This document shows positions 1 to 8,448 of a DNA stretch of 24,610 bases, piece by piece. This stretch comes from Patescibacteria group bacterium. Lineage in GTDB: Bacteria; Patescibacteriota; Patescibacteriia; UBA1558; 2-01-FULL-52-15. The stretch's first letter is position 1; every line of letters starts with the position of its first letter. Under the pieces are notes generated by a model, which saw only the letters and a program-made list of their open reading frames with translations, did not search any database and was not told where the DNA came from. The translations under genes and the position numbers were made by a program. The stretch is from NCBI GenBank assembly GCA_038063795.1, contig JBBTUM010000134.1, positions 1-24,610 on the forward strand. Reading direction: 5' to 3'.

Positions 1-1645
1 TCATTCCATGATTTTCATAGTGCGCGTCGGGTGAGAGGACCGGCACCTTGGAGCGACACAGAACTTTCGTCGGATCTGCAAGGTCAAGGAGCATAGCACC
101 CAGTTTGTAGCGGTCAGGATCGCGGACGTCCATGGCATGATAGAACAGCAGCCAGCCCTGGTCGGTCTTGATAGGCGGAGAACCGGCTCCCCGCGTCCAG
201 TTATCCCAGGCGCCTACCCGTGGTGCTCTGCCATAGCAGCTTCTGATCTTTTTTCTGCCTTTTTCCAGATCATCGAGAGAGTCGACATACTCGATCAGTA
301 TGTCCGGGGAAATGCTGTGCAAGAGCGCGTACTTACCCTTGATCTTTTCAGGAAACAGTACCCAATTCTTGTGAACTTCGTTCGATGGCGAGAGCAAAAC
401 CGCCTTCTTCCAGCGCCAGCGGTGTGCGAGAAAATCTTTGACCGCTATCGAAGTCAGTGCAACCCGCGGATAGTTCCAGCCATTGTACGCGACGTACGTC
501 ATATAATAGCGGTCACCAATGCGGCATACTCGCGGGTCTTCGCAGCCGCCCCAGGTGCCACCGGATTGGTATTGGTTCGGGATCCCGTCATGCGATACGT
601 TCTTTCCCTCGTATCCCTCGCGAGGCGCATACGCAGGGTCGGAAAGGCGCTCGTCAAAATGAACGCCGTCAGCGCTCGAAGCATACCCCAGTACCGAAAG
701 GTCGCTGTCGCCTATCGCCCGGTACATGAGATGTACTCTCCCGTCCTCATACACCGCGGCAGGATTGAACGTCGCTTTGGATTCCCATCGGTTGCCGGTG
801 TTCGGGCGTATGATCGGATTGCCGTCATGCCGTGCCAGTTCCGGACGATGATCGACCGTAAGCGCTTCTAGTTTATCGCCGGGCAGACACAGAGAAACGA
901 ACAGGTGACCGTACCGATCCTGCCAGTAGTACAGCGTTTGATCGTGTATATCGGCGACACCGATCGGCTTGACCGCATGCCTCCATGAGCTTGGCTGCTC
1001 CCAGACCGGTCCGTCGCTGCGCCATATGCACATGGTCGGTCGTTTCGGATCGAACACCGCGACACCGATAGAGTATCGGGTCTGCCGCTTGACTTGCTTC
1101 TTCGTATAGTAGGTCAATTCGATCCCCCTGTCGGTCAGCCGGGCGCGCGCAGGTTCCAGAGGATGCTCATCGAATTCACCGGGTCGCGGTTCGAGCACCG
1201 GAGTCGAATAAATGTGCCATTGGCGCAGATTATGGGACGATGCGAGATGTATCTGCCTGTCGCCAAAGAACATCAGATACCGATGTTCAGGCAGCGGCGT
1301 CTCGACAACAGTGCTGCAATGCTCGATATCCTGGAAGTACCCCTGCGTCAACCAAAAATTGATGTCGTGCGCCACCGCAATGTTCAGAGTGCGCTTCTTT
1401 GCTCGCCGCTGCCGCGTATATGACATGAAAAAAACATCCTTGTTGGATGTTACTCTGAACGAAGCGCACTCGTTCAAATTCCTCAAAAGTCCGTTTTCAC
1501 CGCACAACTCGGAAGTTTCACCTGTGTCCCGGAAGTGGACACCGTCATCACTTGCAGCGACAACGAAGACTTTATAGCCAGCCCTTTTTTTTCGATATAA
1601 GAGAAATACCCGGTTATCTTTTACTGCAACCGCCGCCTCTTGCAT
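1..1645 (-). CDS. GH130-family glycosidase/phosphorylase-like protein with tandem domains (degenerate N-terminal copy plus intact C-terminal copy); 3' end lies beyond the window
   Basis: Manually translated open frame from ATG 1645 off the left edge, absent from the ORF track. C-terminal domain has WESKATFNPAAV..VHLMYRA, GGCEDPRV..YYMTYVAYNG, KNWVLFPEKIKGKYALLH, GAGSPPIKTDQGWLLFYH and YKLGAMLLDLADPTKVL. In-frame TAG at 1670-1672 bounds the 5' end. Confidence 0.9.
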   Translation of the reverse strand, partial: MQEAAVAVKDNRVFLLYRKKRAGYKVFVVAASDDGVHFRDTGETSELCGENGLLRNLNECASFRVTSNKDVFFMSYTRQRRAKKRTLNIAVAHDINFWLTQGYFQDIEHCSTVVETPLPEHRYLMFFGDRQIHLASSHNLRQWHIYSTPVLEPRPGEFDEHPLEPARARLTDRGIELTYYTKKQVKRQTRYSIGVAVFDPKRPTMCIWRSDGPVWEQPSSWRHAVKPIGVADIHDQTLYYWQDRYGHLFVSLCLPGDKLEALTVDHRPELARHDGNPIIRPNTGNRWESKATFNPAAVYEDGRVHLMYRAIGDSDLSVLGYASSADGVHFDERLSDPAYAPREGYEGKNVSHDGIPNQYQSGGTWGGCEDPRVCRIGDRYYMTYVAYNGWNYPRVALTSIAVKDFLAHRWRWKKAVLLSPSNEVHKNWVLFPEKIKGKYALLHSISPDILIEYVDSLDDLEKGRKKIRSCYGRAPRVGAWDNWTRGAGSPPIKTDQGWLLFYHAMDVRDPDRYKLGAMLLDLADPTKVLCRSKVPVLSPDAHYENHGM

Positions 1646-2134: not shown

Positions 2135-2623
2135 ATGTTCGGAAAAAAGAAAAAACAAGAGACAGAGAAAAGCGGGCATCAGTCCGAGAGCTTTCTCGAT
2201 ACGACCCGCGTCAGGACCGGGGACGAGGAACCGAGAAGCGACCTTTCCGGTCTCGAGAACCAACCCGAGTGGATAGACGAAGAGCAGGAGGAAGGTCAGC
2301 TTTCCGTGGATGTCTATCAGGAGGGTGAGAGCATGGTCGTCAAATCAACGATCGCGGGCATCGAGCCTGAGGACGTCGATATCTCCCTCACGAACGACAT
2401 GCTGACCATCCGCGGTGAGCGAAAACGGGACATCTCAAAGAAAGACCGTCATTACTTTTTCGAGGAGTGCTACTGGGGTTCTTTCTCCCGTTCCATCATT
2501 CTGCCTGTCGAGGTCGACATCAAGAAGATTGACGCCACCATCAAGAACGGCATTCTCACGGTCACTCTGCCGATCATCGAAAGCAAAACGAAGAAACAGA
2601 TCAGCGTTAAAGATGAAGAATAA
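2135..2623 (+). CDS. hsp20: Hsp20/alpha-crystallin small heat shock protein
   Basis: LSVDVYQ..VVKSTIAGIEPEDVDIS..LTIRGER..EECYWGSFSRSIILPVEVD..A..KNGILTVTLP alpha-crystallin motifs. Confidence 0.93.
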   Translation: MFGKKKKQETEKSGHQSESFLDTTRVRTGDEEPRSDLSGLENQPEWIDEEQEEGQLSVDVYQEGESMVVKSTIAGIEPEDVDISLTNDMLTIRGERKRDISKKDRHYFFEECYWGSFSRSIILPVEVDIKKIDATIKNGILTVTLPIIESKTKKQISVKDEE

Positions 2624-2835
2624 TGCTGCTCCCGAACCTCAAGGTCACGGTCGCTGAGGTCACTGACGCCTTTCTCCTTCTGAAAACCGAGCAAGGCCAG
2701 ACCATCACCGTACCAAAGAATCTCATGCCGGGTGCAAGTGAGGGAATGCAGTTTTATCTGGCAGCAGATGGGAAGCCGCTTGTGAGCGCCGATACGCACG
2801 CGAAGGACGTGCTGAACGAGGTGATGGGAAAATAA
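2623..2835 (+). CDS. Small hypothetical protein, DUF3006-like beta-rich pattern
   Basis: 70 aa; ATG overlaps the hsp20 stop (TAATG); L.TEQGQTITVPKNLMP.ASEG pattern. Confidence 0.7.
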   Translation: MLLPNLKVTVAEVTDAFLLLKTEQGQTITVPKNLMPGASEGMQFYLAADGKPLVSADTHAKDVLNEVMGK

Positions 2836-2836
2836 T

Positions 2837-3631
2837 ATGGTCCATGAAGATCTCCAAAACTTAGGACTCAGCGACAAAGAAGCAAGCGTCTATCTTGCCG
2901 CGCTCGAGCTGGGAAGCGACACTGTACAGCGCATTGCTCAGAAAGCAAAGGTGAAACGAGTAACCACGTATGTGGTGCTTCAAACACTTCTCAAAAAAGG
3001 ACTCGTCAGCAAAATAGATAAGAGCAAAAAAACTCTTTTCATCGCTGAGGAGCCTTCTCGTCTTGTACGATTTATCGAGCAGCAGATCAAGGATCTTGAC
3101 TTCAAAAAAAATACCATTCAAGGCCTGATATCGCAATTGAAATTGATAACCAACAGTAATCCGAATAAGCCTATTGTTCGCTTTTACGAAGGCAAAGAGG
3201 GTGTAGACGCGCTTATGGACGAATTTATCAAGGAGTTTAGATCGAATGATACGACGAAACAAGATGCTTCAGATGATTCACATAATTTATTTATCGCATA
3301 TTCCCGGGATTTGTTAGAAAAAATTTTTTCAAAGGAAGAACGAGAGAGAGGACGAAAAGAGCGACTTAAAGCAAAAATTGAAGCACGCCCTCTATATAAT
3401 TGGCAAAAACCCACTGAAGACTTCAAGCTCAGCAAAGGGATTAAACTATCGTATGATCTCTTTCCCTTCCCCTGTGATATAGCTGTTTTTCAAGATAAGA
3501 TTCGCTTGATATCTCTTACAGCCGAACCAACCGCTGTCCTTATTATTGATAAAAATCTTGCCGAAGGACTACGATCTCTATTCAAGCTCGCGCATCATGG
3601 AGCTCAAGAGTTAAAAAAAAATAAAATTTGA
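2837..3631 (+). CDS. TrmB-family (winged-HTH) transcriptional regulator
   Basis: LGLSDKEASVYLAALELG..IAQKAKVKRVTTYVVLQTLLKKGLV HTH, then KPIVRFYEGKEG and a PLD-like C-terminal sensor region. Confidence 0.9.
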   Translation: MVHEDLQNLGLSDKEASVYLAALELGSDTVQRIAQKAKVKRVTTYVVLQTLLKKGLVSKIDKSKKTLFIAEEPSRLVRFIEQQIKDLDFKKNTIQGLISQLKLITNSNPNKPIVRFYEGKEGVDALMDEFIKEFRSNDTTKQDASDDSHNLFIAYSRDLLEKIFSKEERERGRKERLKAKIEARPLYNWQKPTEDFKLSKGIKLSYDLFPFPCDIAVFQDKIRLISLTAEPTAVLIIDKNLAEGLRSLFKLAHHGAQELKKNKI

Positions 3632-3645
3632 TCGAGAAATGATTA

Positions 3646-3688
3646 GGGCCCGGCCTCACGCTTGTGCGTGATGCCGGGCCCCTTTTTG
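3646..3688 (+). terminator. Intrinsic terminator of the hsp20-TrmB operon
   Basis: GGGCCCGGC..GCCGGGCCC stem with inner TCACG/CGTGA, followed by CTTTTTG. Confidence 0.8.
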
Positions 3689-3689
3689 C

Positions 3690-4018
3690 TTTGCCTGCTA
3701 CTTTTCTCCTGTCCTGGACTGAAGGTCCAGCTCATTGGAGCGTACAGAGCTCGCAACCAAACCCGCTTTCGTCTTCGGGATCTAGGCCGCAGATGAGTGA
3801 ACCGACTAACCGCTAGTCTCCCATGTTCATGTTACCTCCAAAGAAATAGTGACTTTGACACCGGCAGGGCCATTTTAGCACGGCGGGAGCGCTGCCCGAG
3901 GTCTACCTCGGGCAGCGCTTCGCTCAGGCGCTAGTGGCCCACTATTTACCTCCCTTTCTGCCCTTAAAAGGGCTGAAAATTGATCAGTTAGCGAAAAAAA
4001 AGATATTAATGTAAAGAA
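3690..4018 (-). ncRNA. Candidate structured small transcript with two SD-led tripeptide mini-ORFs
   Basis: Consensus promoter at 4025-4053; no ORF of 60 aa or more; GGAGGT followed by GTG GGC CAC TAG (3942-3931) and by ATG GGA GAC TAG (3824-3813); 14-bp hairpin 3888-3919. Ends are approximate. Confidence 0.45.
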
Positions 4019-4024
4019 CCGGAC

Positions 4025-4053
4025 AATATAGCGCACGGCGGCTTTTATGTCAA
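4025..4053 (-). promoter_or_regulatory. Sigma70 promoter (leftward) of the accessory block
   Basis: TTGACA-17 nt-TATATT. Confidence 0.75.
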
Positions 4054-4181
4054 TAGCAAGTAACAGAAAGCGTTACATCAATATTTCATTTCGAATAATC
4101 TAAAATAGCATAATTATAATCAAAATAATACTCTATATTAGCAGTATAATTGATTGTTCATTGAATTAATGTCATCGAGAC

Positions 4182-4210
4182 TTGACAGAAATTTGATAAT
4201 GCGCTAGGAT
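4182..4210 (+). promoter_or_regulatory. Sigma70 promoter (rightward) of the accessory block
   Basis: TTGACA-17 nt-TAGGAT preceded by an AT-rich tract. Confidence 0.75.
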
Positions 4211-4445: not shown

Positions 4446-4631
4446 ATGCGGACGACGTCGCGCGCTCAGTCACTCGAACAGAAGATTATGGAGTTCCTGA
4501 AGCGGCACGGGTGTACCGCCGACGGCCGCAAACTGTCTGACGCTCCTAGCGCATTCCAGCTCAAGATGGAGCGCAAGGTCGCGACAGGACAGGGCTCCAA
4601 GGGGTGGCGCAGAAAAACACGTCGCCCTTGA
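4446..4631 (+). CDS. Small basic hypothetical protein (61 aa)
   Basis: AAGGAGG SD at 4434-4440, 5 nt before ATG; Arg/Lys-rich C-terminus. Confidence 0.7.
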   Translation: MRTTSRAQSLEQKIMEFLKRHGCTADGRKLSDAPSAFQLKMERKVATGQGSKGWRRKTRRP

Positions 4632-4930
4632 ACCAATCATTTTCGCGCATGCAGGTCGGCGCAGCGGCCCAGGCATGTATCAGGGTTCCGCCCTGTTTCC
4701 GATACCGAGGCCTGCAGGCTCCGGAACGGAAAAACAGCGGACGGGGGTTCGATAGTGGCGGCTATCGACGACTCAGGGAGCAGGGCACTTTGACCGCCAG
4801 CTCTGCTCCCACTGCGCATTAGTTCTTCGAAACCGTAGCCAAGCAGGAAAGGCTTTTGTGTCAACCTGGCGATGGCAGGTGGCGAGAGCCGAGTACATGA
4901 GTCTTGGTGAATAACCGAAAGGGGGAAACG

Positions 4931-5416
4931 TTGAAAAACGTCGCCTTCGTCACCTACAACACGGTAGGTGACAAGCTTTCGAGCGGCTGGCACGGGTCCA
5001 ACGGCCGACGTGCGCTGGTCCTCCAGAATAGCAGCGGTGATCGCTGGGCGGTAGATAAATTCTACCGAAGCGATCCTGCGAGCTATCGTCGGAGTGACCA
5101 CGCAAGCCACGTTATGGACGAGATCAGCAACCTCTGGAATGAACTCCAGACGGTATTGTCTGAGATCGACCACATCGTGGTATACGTCGGATCACGTGGA
5201 TCGGAGCAAGCCATTGCGCTTGCTGCGCAACTGCCCGCATCCAAGGTCACGTTCGTCGGCTGTGACTGTGGCATCCTCGTAAAGGAAGCCATGGTCCAGG
5301 CGGCTGGACTAGCCAAGGCGCGGCGATTGCTCTGCGAGTGTGGTGGTCACCGGACTATGGAGACTCTCTTTGAGAGCTTCATGGAAACTGGTGAGCTCCT
5401 ACCCGTGGCTGCGTAA
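4931..5416 (+). CDS. Hypothetical protein (161 aa) with VVYVG, CDC and CECGGH motifs
   Basis: TTG start preceded by AAAGGGGG; protein-like alpha/beta pattern. The ORF-track start at 4904 lacks an SD. Confidence 0.8.
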   Translation: MKNVAFVTYNTVGDKLSSGWHGSNGRRALVLQNSSGDRWAVDKFYRSDPASYRRSDHASHVMDEISNLWNELQTVLSEIDHIVVYVGSRGSEQAIALAAQLPASKVTFVGCDCGILVKEAMVQAAGLAKARRLLCECGGHRTMETLFESFMETGELLPVAA

Positions 5417-6198: not shown

Positions 6199-6303
6199 AG
6201 TACTATGGCGCAAATCTTTATTTGCGCCCTCTACCAGAACTGTGGAGTCGCTCGACAGTTGCGGTGGGGTTTATTCGTCCTCACACTGAAAAAAGGAGGA
6301 GTC

Positions 6304-6630
6304 ATGGCCAGGATCGATCTGATGTTCTGCGACGATGGTACAGGCAATGTTGCGTACGGTAGAACGATCGAGGAAGACCAGCAAGAAGATCGGGCCAATA
6401 GTGGTGACAGCACGATCGTCGCCCACGTGACCTTTGAGGAAAACGACGAAGATTTCCGGGGCGCCGTGGTGGACGTAATCTATGCAACCCACACCATCGA
6501 GTGTGCTGGCTGCGCTGGCGAGCTCGGTTGCACGGTGTTCGAAAGGTTCATTTCCGAGATCTTCAAGGCTGGCCTCGAGTATGGTCGCGCATCTGCGCTT
6601 CAATCGACAACCCCTTCCAAGGAGGAATGA
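6304..6630 (+). CDS. Acidic hypothetical protein (108 aa)
   Basis: AAGGAGG SD at 6293-6299; CAGC..C motif; C-terminal FKAGLEYGRA helix. Confidence 0.75.
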   Translation: MARIDLMFCDDGTGNVAYGRTIEEDQQEDRANSGDSTIVAHVTFEENDEDFRGAVVDVIYATHTIECAGCAGELGCTVFERFISEIFKAGLEYGRASALQSTTPSKEE

Positions 6631-7335: not shown

Positions 7336-7548
7336 ATGGGAACACCGACAAAGAAACGCACCAGCGGGCAACGCAAACGACGTGCATCGCACTTCGCGCT
7401 CAGAAGCAAAAGCGTACGCCCCTGTCCGAAATGCAAGAAGCCGGTACTACCTCATCACGCATGCGCTTTTTGTGGCTACTACAAAGGACGCCAGGTCATG
7501 ACCGTTGCTGTCGAGGCACGAAAACCGGGAACAGCAGCCAAAAAGTAG
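7336..7548 (+). CDS. rpmF: 50S ribosomal protein L32 (Zn-ribbon type)
   Basis: PKKRTSGQRKRRASH..CPKCKKPVLPHHACAFCGYYKGRQV. Confidence 0.97.
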   Translation: MGTPTKKRTSGQRKRRASHFALRSKSVRPCPKCKKPVLPHHACAFCGYYKGRQVMTVAVEARKPGTAAKK

Positions 7549-7554
7549 GATCGT

Positions 7555-8448
7555 ATGGCCAATCGGCATCTCGCTCGTACCTTAACATTGCAGGCGCTCT
7601 TTCTGTGGGATTTTTACCGTGGAGAGACTAAGGTGGACGAGGCGCTCGAGTATATCATTGCCGAGTTCGCGCCTGACTTTGAGGAAAAAGAATTTTCATA
7701 CAACCTCGCGCACAAGGTGATCGAACATCAAGCTGGGATCGATACGCTGATCGTTCGCTTTGCGCCCGAATGGCCCCTCGACCAGATAACGACTATCGAC
7801 CGCAATGTGTTACGCATTGGGGTTTTTGAATTGAAATTTGCTGACGACATCCCTCCGAAAGTCGCCATCAACGAGGCGATCGAACTCGCAAAAACGTATG
7901 GAGGCCCCTCGAGCGGAAAGTTCATCAATGGGGTCCTCGGGAGCATTTACAAAGAGATGATAGGGCTTGGCGAGAAGCAGTCTCCCGAAAGCCAAGGCAT
8001 CAAAGAGATCTCCGCTGGCGGACTCGTCTACCGCAAGTCAGGCGACGTGCTGTATTTTGCCCTCATTCTTGACGCCTATGGCAAATGGACATTCCCGAAG
8101 GGGCATGTCGATTCGGTGGAATCGCTCGAAAAGGCCGCTGCGCGGGAGATCTCCGAAGAGATCGGTATTAAGGAGCTGACGCTCGTCGCCCCGCTCGGCA
8201 GCGCAGAGCTCAAAGTACATCGAACCGGCGAGTCGTCATTCCGAAAACTGGTGCACTACTTCCTCTTCAAGACCGACAAGGAGACACTGATCGTTCCGAA
8301 GGTGGCGGAACTCACGGATGTGAAATGGTACCCGACCGAGGAAGCCGAGGCAAAGCTATCCTACAATCAAAATAAAGAAATGTTCGCAAAAGCACTTGAA
8401 TATATCAAGGAATATGAAGAAACTGGCACCGTTGGAAAAAAAGATTAA
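7555..8448 (+). CDS. nusB: Transcription antitermination factor NusB fused to a C-terminal Nudix hydrolase
   Basis: NusB motifs RHLAR..LQALF, IDRNVLRIGVFEL, PPKVAINEAIELAKTYG..SGKFINGVLG; intact Nudix box GHVDSVESLEKAAAREISEEIGI. Confidence 0.93.
   Translation: MANRHLARTLTLQALFLWDFYRGETKVDEALEYIIAEFAPDFEEKEFSYNLAHKVIEHQAGIDTLIVRFAPEWPLDQITTIDRNVLRIGVFELKFADDIPPKVAINEAIELAKTYGGPSSGKFINGVLGSIYKEMIGLGEKQSPESQGIKEISAGGLVYRKSGDVLYFALILDAYGKWTFPKGHVDSVESLEKAAAREISEEIGIKELTLVAPLGSAELKVHRTGESSFRKLVHYFLFKTDKETLIVPKVAELTDVKWYPTEEAEAKLSYNQNKEMFAKALEYIKEYEETGTVGKKD

Follow-up and report, generated by a model that had tools for sequence, protein, structure and literature searches.

Twin three-codon open reading frames on a putative repressor-controlled RNA of Patescibacteria

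The DNA examined here is a stretch of 24,610 nucleotides (nt; the window) from a Patescibacteria group bacterium (GenBank assembly GCA_038063795.1, contig JBBTUM010000134.1, positions 1 to 24,610). The genome to which it belongs (G000) comprises 1.16 Mb, with a CheckM-type completeness of 96.5%. On the minus strand of the window, convergent with the gene for a TrmB-like regulator, lies a transcription unit predicted from sequence to run from promoter to terminator between about 4018 and 3646. It carries two open reading frames (ORFs) of only three sense codons, each preceded by a strong Shine-Dalgarno (SD) site, and recurs beside orthologues of the same regulator in other lineages, where little more than the SD sites and the minimal ORFs is conserved. 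The RNA probably acts by engaging ribosomes. Its features, in the direction of transcription, are as follows.

4025..4053, minus strand: sigma-70-type promoter TTGACA-17-TATATT, matching 11 of 12 consensus positions, from which transcription would start near 4018
3948..3958, minus strand: Shine-Dalgarno site 1, GAAAGGGAGGT, with the core GGAGGT at 3953-3948 followed by the spacer taaata
3931..3942, minus strand: mini-ORF 1, GTG GGC CAC TAG, translated as Met-Gly-His-stop
3867..3940, minus strand: long GC-rich hairpin with mini-ORF 1 as its 5' basal strand; the predicted local structure (-54 kcal/mol) begins at codon 2
3834..3839, minus strand: Shine-Dalgarno site 2, GGAGGT, with the spacer aacatgaac before the ATG
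3813..3824, minus strand: mini-ORF 2, ATG GGA GAC TAG, translated as Met-Gly-Asp-stop
3804..3818, minus strand: small hairpin GACTAGCGGTTAGTC holding the stop codon of mini-ORF 2, present in both the minimum-free-energy and the centroid structures
3687..3803, minus strand: structured 3' body, whose sequence is not conserved in relatives; nothing outside the two modules of SD and mini-ORF is alignable
3646..3682, both strands: GC-rich hairpin terminator shared by the RNA and the convergent TrmB-like gene, with a good T-run on the plus strand and a weaker one on the minus strand

The twin tripeptide ORFs had been reported in a first-pass annotation of this DNA, and their coordinates, codons and spacing were confirmed to the base, the two start codons lying 118 nt apart. 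An additional in-frame ATG at 3830 would also allow MNMGD to be made from the second SD site. How unusual is such an arrangement? The genome holds 29 GGAGG-led ORFs of at most three sense codons on its two strands, and only one pair of them is spaced 90-140 nt on one strand, namely the pair at the present locus. Since only about 0.02 such pairs would be expected, the twin arrangement is more than chance. Genome-wide, a three-codon ORF follows 12 of the 528 sites at which GGAGG precedes a start codon (2.3%).

The leftward promoter claimed by the same annotation is found in the sequence and is kept at the same place in relatives. Downstream of it, a 64-nt AU-rich leader precedes a GC-rich body (about 55% GC, compared with 27% in the surrounding intergenic DNA). 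The 381-nt RNA has a predicted folding energy of -158.7 kcal/mol versus -126.6 kcal/mol for shuffled sequences (z = -5.5), and the base of the long hairpin is formed by GGGCCA (3940-3935) pairing with TGGCCC (3872-3867). In the homologous RNAs the terminator ends in a clean U-tract on the RNA strand.

The unit is not a protein gene. Log-odds scoring of codon usage, with 452 long ORFs of this genome as the training set, gives no coding signal in any frame between 3600 and 4900. A small protein or an alternative genetic code was accordingly rejected, as translation table 4 opens no frame and all stops are in use (TGA 165, TAA 164 and TAG 123 among the long ORFs). Known RNA families (transfer-messenger RNA (tmRNA), RNase P RNA, 6S RNA and riboswitches) were rejected for the unit by Rfam scans and whole-genome checks. 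Rfam gave no match at the gathering score and, at E values up to 10, matches at chance level only (mir-3569 and a DnaX-like match on the terminator). RNase P RNA is encoded elsewhere, on contig C78, and tmRNA at C2:1974-2372, beside smpB; 6S RNA was not found in the whole-genome check. The tmRNA on contig C2 is a divergent one, scoring 94 bits with the Rfam model at a place where ARAGORN, run genome-wide, detects no tmRNA.

DNA searches with the RNA matched nothing outside its own locus in 40 relatives, in the congeners of the Komeilibacteria genome G006 or by local BLASTN/tBLASTx, and the neighbouring gene was therefore used to find homologues. Homologous loci were located solely via orthologues of the TrmB-like gene and thus independently of the RNA sequence. 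In G006, which represents another genus (Candidatus Komeilibacteria), a 58%-identical orthologue is followed by a convergent RNA unit with the promoter TTGACA-17-TAGACT, a clean terminator and a fold z of -7.2. It contains two SD-led mini-ORFs 124 nt apart, GTG AAC GAC TAA (MND) and ATG GGC GAC TAG (MGD), and BLASTN finds no similarity between the RNA of the window and that of G006.

Metagenomic orthologues of 73%, 64% and 61% identity (L043, L045 and L051) also adjoin the RNA unit. L043 has MGLW-stop and MGDKLRQF-stop and L045 has MGH-stop and MDHLS-stop, while the partial locus L051 has MDHLS-stop with three synonymous differences from L045 (GAC/GAT, CTG/TTG and TAA/TAG). The unit is found as well beside orthologues of 41-44% identity from other lineages: L053 (MPD, MND), L052 (MGH, MGG) and L055 (MEG, MLG). 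Among 29 fetched loci, clear twins occur in L056 (MPD/MND), L057 (MED/MDD), L066 (MGD/MSD), L074 (MND/MGD), L082 (MND/MQD) and L084 (MDG/MND). Most of the other fetched loci have a single SD-led ORF of 3-6 codons, often starting with Met-Gly-Asp (MGDEG, MGDSGD, MGDCG, MGDEGN); such single-ORF variants often terminate in TGA. No twin mini-ORFs were seen at 18 loci with lower-identity TrmB paralogues.

The SD-Met-x-x-stop pattern described by the first-pass annotation proves to be conserved across genera and families. A comparison of 12 full-length RNAs with shuffled sequences leaves only AAAGGAGG(T/G) and GACTAG/GACTAA as k-mers shared more often than expected, and an ungapped alignment of 21 modules gives the consensus AAAGGAGG-N5-ATG-Gnn-GAC-TAG. 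A module is made up of the long SD, a spacer of 5-9 nt, AUG or GUG, a variable codon, a final sense codon, mostly for Asp, and any stop; where Asp is absent, the final codon is for Gly (GGY) or His (CAC). Elsewhere, in its body and 3' half, the RNA is unalignable even between fairly close relatives. The counterparts of mini-ORF 1 read MGH (L045, L052), MND (G006, L074, L082), MPD, MED, MGD, MEG, MDG or MGLW, and those of mini-ORF 2 read MGD (G006, L074), MND, MDD, MSD, MQD, MLG, MGG, MDHLS (L045, L051) or MGDKLRQF. Start codons alternate between AUG and GUG, all three stops are present across modules, Gly at codon 2 is written GGC, GGA or GGT, and Asp is written GAC or GAT. To judge from the sequences, this pattern of variation looks like selection on translation signals.

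The fixed length of the ORFs stands out in transcripts defined by the operator (see below) and promoter only. There, 17 of 23 GGAGG-plus-start sites open a three-codon ORF, against the genome baseline of 2.3%, and 22 of 23 open an ORF of six codons or fewer (baseline, 11%). The SD sites can pair over 8-11 nt with the 3' tail of 16S rRNA, GAUCACCUCCUUUCUA, as found in the relatives G006 and G155, the window organism's own 16S rRNA gene being absent from the assembly; site 1 of the window is complementary to the tail CACCUCCUUUCU. Since selection is seen only on ribosome-loading signals and on a minimal ORF of fixed length, the RNA is proposed to act through ribosomes. We place the probability that it works in this way, and not via a protein product or stop-codon readthrough, at about 0.8. 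The 24 mini-ORF stops in the 12 related twin RNAs are distributed as TAG 13, TAA 9 and TGA 2, yet TGA is the commonest stop in the long ORFs of the genome.

The identical TAG stops of the window had also led to the suggestion that programmed or ancestral readthrough might yield peptides of 30-35 residues. Both frames do stay open for 26-32 codons past the TAG, and the two readthrough strings were reproduced exactly by translation. The Arg-Leu pair that follows each TAG is likewise present in the window, but it is kept in no relative. The frames past the stop extend from 0 to at least 40 codons in relatives with no similarity to one another, and many lineages have UAA or UGA as the stop. When the fate of the TAG was followed through the relatives, the closest one (L043) was found to have AAA and five unrelated codons in its place, and elsewhere UAG, UAA or UGA. 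The readthrough frames also lie in the region without coding signal, and TAG ends 123 of the 452 long ORFs of the genome, among the genes using it being rpmF (7336-7548), as the annotation had stated. Readthrough was rejected because the frames that it would translate are not conserved, and it is almost certainly not the function of these stops.

The position of the mini-ORFs relative to RNA structure is also a recurrent feature. In 10 of the 12 RNAs, very stable local structure (-19 to -54 kcal/mol) sets in no more than 5 nt from the second codon of mini-ORF 1, so that this ORF, together with its stop, makes up the 5' side of the long hairpin's basal stem. For the second mini-ORF the structure starts 0-25 nt downstream. 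The predicted local structures at the mini-ORFs range from -18 to -54 kcal/mol over the 12 RNAs and set in 0-25 nt past the start codon.

This geometry resembles that of the Bacillus subtilis vmlR leader, where a translated three-codon upstream ORF (uORF) encoding MIN, with natural variants MDN and MDK, has its own SD site in the base of a stem-loop (PMC9226507). In both cases the three-codon ORF is embedded in the stem-loop base, and a ribosome sitting there would prevent the helix from forming. Could the window RNA be a sensor of stalled ribosomes? A ribosome paused on the three-codon ORF would then block the hairpin base and refold the RNA, the output being termination versus readthrough. 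With the RNA upstream of trmB, readthrough would enter that gene; with the two convergent, as in the window, it would run antisense to trmB. Mini-ORF 1 is indeed the 5' basal strand of the long hairpin in most members, and in 8 of about 15 loci (L052, L055, L061, L066, L068, L074, L082 and L084) the RNA precedes trmB on the same strand, and the interval between the two holds no more than weak promoter-like matches. However, the window and six other lineages (G006, L043, L045, L053/L056 and L057) have the RNA running towards the regulator gene, with no gene downstream on the RNA strand, and the effect of readthrough on TrmB would be opposite in sign between the two orientations.

The vmlR leader differs in being a 219-nt sequence directly upstream of the gene that it controls, with a defined antiterminator, whereas the RNAs of the window family end at their own strong terminator, and half of the loci have no downstream gene. 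More generally, leader-peptide and uORF attenuators (vmlR, erm, trpL) place the uORF upstream of the regulated gene on the transcript, which is not so in the window or in the other convergent loci. Moreover, ORF2 is followed by a stretch of non-conserved sequence before the terminator, which measures about 130 nt in the window and up to 300 nt elsewhere. When the bases under a ribosome on ORF1, ORF2 or both are kept unpaired, the RNA refolds with the terminator stem still at a pair probability of 0.96-0.99 (G006, L043, L045, L052, L066, L084), and the accessibility of the second SD site shows no consistent change. This modelling covers thermodynamics only, not co-transcriptional kinetics, and judges the terminator only in the RNAs where its stem was captured. 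A stall sensor of the vmlR kind is on balance a doubtful account of the family. Of the three hypotheses put forward in the first-pass annotation, a ribosome-engaging or decoy RNA fits best; a translation-coupled switch is possible, with no consistent refolding seen, and TAG readthrough is not supported.

A different role for strong SD sites is known from the STAB-SD elements, or 5' roadblocks, of the cryIIIA and ermC leaders, in which an SD near the 5' end binds ribosomes and no protein is made. By analogy, a 30S subunit or 70S ribosome bound to the window RNA might shield a non-coding RNA from a 5' exonuclease or from Rho, the function residing in the structured body. The strong SD sites do lie towards the 5' end of the RNA, which is long and stable, and the hairpins of CreT-type RNAs, discussed below, also serve stability (bioRxiv 10.64898/2026.06.02.729485). 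However, a roadblock requires neither a start codon, nor a fixed length of three codons, nor an Asp codon, nor a stop, and start, length and stop are all conserved in the window family. In addition, the structured body, which would be the functional part, is the least conserved. Protection of this sort is a very unlikely main function.

The regulatory elements around the RNA include the regulator gene and two operators.

2837..3631, plus strand: TrmB-like regulator gene (Pfam PF01978), the invariant neighbour of the RNA
4048..4065, minus strand: palindromic operator TGTTA-N8-TGACA overlapping the -35 box of the RNA promoter, with a palindrome in 11 of 12 homologous loci
4170..4210, plus strand: second operator TGTCA-N8-TGACA (4170-4187) overlapping, as read from the sequence, the -35 box of a divergent promoter TTGACA-17-TAGGAT (4182-4210)

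In 11 of 12 loci a TGTCA-N8-TGACA palindrome has its right half in the -35 box TTGACA of the RNA promoter. Of the 5 positions in the left half, 10 of these loci match 4 or all 5 and L052 matches 3, the chance of at least 4 matches at one site being 0.016. The window genome has four relaxed operator matches, two of which are at this divergent promoter pair. The regulator gene is the only constant neighbour of the RNA across loci. Its product was modelled with a predicted local distance difference test (pLDDT) score of 93.8 and has an N-terminal winged helix, a long coiled-coil helix and, at its C-terminus, a PLD/Nuc-like domain. Structurally, it matches TrmBL2 (5bqt, E 2.5e-11) and TrmB (3qph) best, with Nuc/NucT for the C-terminal domain. 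As modelled, the regulator therefore has the architecture of the TrmB family, namely the winged helix (PF01978), a dimerisation helix and a PLD-like effector-type domain. Most likely, the adjacent TrmB-like protein represses both promoters, through putative binding at the palindromes.

It is conceivable that the tripeptides themselves (formyl-Met (fMet)-x-Asp, -His or -Gly) are intracellular effectors of the TrmB-like regulator, closing a feedback loop that reports translational capacity. The conservation is indeed amino-acid-like, with Gly written by three codons, Asp by both of its codons and MDHLS retained through synonymous changes, and longer variants keep an N-terminal Met-Gly-Asp (MGDEG, MGDSGD, MGDCG, MGDEGN, MGDKLRQF). 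The C-terminal domain of the regulator has, in the model, the fold of a TrmB effector domain, and the RNA is without exception next to the regulator gene. However, the second residue varies widely (G, N, P, E, D, S, Q, L), one RNA would give two different peptides, and TrmBL2, the best structural match, is without a known ligand. To our knowledge, there is no precedent for a directly translated effector of three residues. Peptide effectors are rather improbable.

Ribosome engagement by very short ORFs has known counterparts. The closest in design is CreT, the RNA toxin of the CRISPR-regulated toxin-antitoxin (CreTA) modules of Haloarcula hispanica, Halobacterium hubeiense and Pseudomonas aeruginosa. 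CreT is toxic only if it has a strong SD, an efficient AUG or GUG start, its mini-ORF and a stable GC-rich hairpin, and a DNA-binding complex represses its promoter (PMC8501985). The Pseudomonas CreT uses common Pro codons and causes translation arrest, the hairpin serving RNA stability (bioRxiv 10.64898/2026.06.02.729485). Like CreT, the window RNA is predicted to be a stand-alone small RNA with a strong promoter and a DNA-binding repressor. The combination of a strong SD, an efficient start and a mini-ORF of a few codons is found in both modules of the window and of the 12 homologous RNAs, and a stable stem-loop is predicted directly after or around the mini-ORF here too. CreT acts by being translated and not through its peptide, and the same is proposed for the window RNA.

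There are also clear differences from CreT. The toxic principle of CreT is AGA-AGA, AUA-AUA or Pro-Pro, whereas the window codons are common and unrepeated: GGC ranks 7, GAC 8 and CAC 40 of 61 in the genome, and Pro-Pro is absent. Sequestration of rare-codon tRNAs was rejected on the same ranks. CreT is repressed by Cascade guided by CreA, beside a type I CRISPR-Cas system, and here the repressor is likely to be a TrmB-like protein at the palindrome, an operator of the protein type. Finally, the window family has two modules per RNA and an RNA length of 380-500 nt, and no sequence homology to CreT.

The minigenes of the lambda bar region, and engineered minigenes, are very short ORFs with a strong SD whose high expression causes peptidyl-tRNA drop-off and starves translation. 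They share with the window modules the order of SD, start codon, one or two sense codons and stop. Unlike these modules, the bar minigenes lie inside a phage transcript, are toxic mainly in hosts deficient in Pth, and are without a dedicated repressor, a twin layout or a conserved last codon, which is mostly Asp in the window family.

With these systems in mind, it is possible to outline how the window RNA could work. The TrmB-like repressor on the palindromic operator would keep the RNA promoter off, and on derepression an abundant RNA would load ribosomes onto the three-codon genes. In an ORF of three codons the duplex between SD and anti-SD can persist when the stop codon reaches the A site, within spacing limits. 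The SD duplex might thus still be in place at termination on these ORFs, and ribosomes, together with peptidyl-tRNA or release and recycling factors, could be held or cycled unproductively. The net outcome would be a brake on translation, gated by the repressor, as in the CreT toxins and lambda bar minigenes. The analysis establishes the anatomy of the unit, its conservation, the operator and the connection with the regulator gene; we infer transcription, translation, repression by the TrmB-like protein and the braking effect from the comparisons above. A repressor-gated brake is the mechanism that we favour, as a tentative proposal that is less likely than not.

Several observations weigh against this proposal. 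The codons are common, neither repeated nor Pro-Pro, so the toxic feature of CreT is absent. Each RNA has two different mini-ORFs and is far larger than a minimal toxin, for which the 130 nt or so of structured sequence after the mini-ORFs would be superfluous. The SD sites have a predicted unpaired probability of about 0.3, compared with 0.4 for the whole RNA, and are thus not specially exposed. That Gly is specified by codons read by different tRNAs, and Leu by CUG or UUG (L045, L051), hints at selection on the peptide, which is unexpected for a pure trap. Lastly, repression by the TrmB-like protein is inferred from adjacency and the palindrome only. A broader possibility is that the three-codon genes are the active principle of a self-contained RNA/TrmB module, either with the tripeptides as cognate effectors or as an addiction or growth-arrest module in which a protein represses an RNA toxin; stated in this form, the idea is unlikely.

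The distribution of the module was assessed by synteny with the regulator gene and by one narrow pattern search. The TrmB orthologue occurs in 50 of 401 genomes sampled from the class and in 2 of 14 genomes of the family, and neither the orthologue nor the RNA was found in two congeners of G006. With this patchy distribution, the module behaves as an accessory one. Of 86 genomes from the order, G000 and G006 alone contain the exact pattern GGAGG-N4-10-ATGGGNGACTAG. The pattern AAGGAGG-N4-9-RTGNNNGAYTAR has 15 matches in the 401 class genomes versus 9 for the control, which puts single matches at chance level; double matches occur in only three genomes, all with the TrmB orthologue. A covariance model built from the module's sequence alone (R1, 19 bits) was so weak that it missed the modules of the window itself. 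Literature searches retrieved no published description of this RNA, which is apparently an undescribed family of the candidate phyla radiation (CPR)/Patescibacteria, present in Komeilibacteria and in other lineages of the same class.

If translated, the mini-ORFs would be three-codon genes kept by selection across a whole bacterial class, on an RNA conserved only in its ribosome-loading signals, and would be among the shortest genes under purifying selection. The minigene principle, seen so far in lambda bar and the CRISPR-linked CreT, would then reach a chromosomal module of ultra-small symbiotic bacteria that is vertically widespread and under the control of a transcription factor. There would also be a way to study how cells with genomes of about 1 Mb and single-copy tRNA genes throttle or monitor translation. 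Were the tripeptides effectors, the cell would sense its own translational capacity through a peptide-repressor loop. The operator-repressor pair would constitute a defined regulatory circuit in organisms with almost no mapped regulation, and the module is small enough for complete cell-free testing.

On the other side of the operators, the divergent promoter leads into a structured leader of about 230 nt and then a 61-codon ORF with a GGAGG site (4446-4631, plus strand). The back-to-back layout is also found in G006, L043, L045, L053, L055, L074 and L082. The divergent cargo varies by lineage, consisting of small orphan ORFs in some and of Ro60/TROVE in L052 and L053. In these two loci (L052 1-3000, L053 3760-6759) a leader of 0.7-1 kb without any gene precedes a Ro60/TROVE gene with a vWA domain, which diverges from the mini-ORF RNA. 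A constant partnership of the RNA with Ro60/TROVE or HSP20 was considered and rejected, TROVE adjoining it in no loci but L052 and L053/L085. In L052 the regulator is followed by RF1-PrmC, and HSP20 is nearby in the Komeilibacteria loci.

Operator promoters beside TrmB orthologues are also present in L069 (about 1100-1130, minus strand) and L071 (about 2600-2640, plus strand), where they lead to 12-codon ORFs, MPYPETAARGAH and MHRYRTAARGAH. From their sequences, these ORFs, which end in the same residues, may represent a different conserved mini-peptide in a similar regulon.

In the window itself the neighbours of the locus are HSP20, the TrmB-like gene, small ORFs and rpmF-nusB, and no cas genes were seen beside it. 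Between 4637 and 7000, both strands contain many overlapping ORFs of 100-180 codons with a weak or patchy coding signal, and counterparts were found only for 4904-5416 (75% identical in L045) and 6205-6630 (30% in G006). Further along, at 7555-8448 on the plus strand, NusB is fused to a NUDIX hydrolase in a single ORF of 297 residues, a fusion that is also present in L043.

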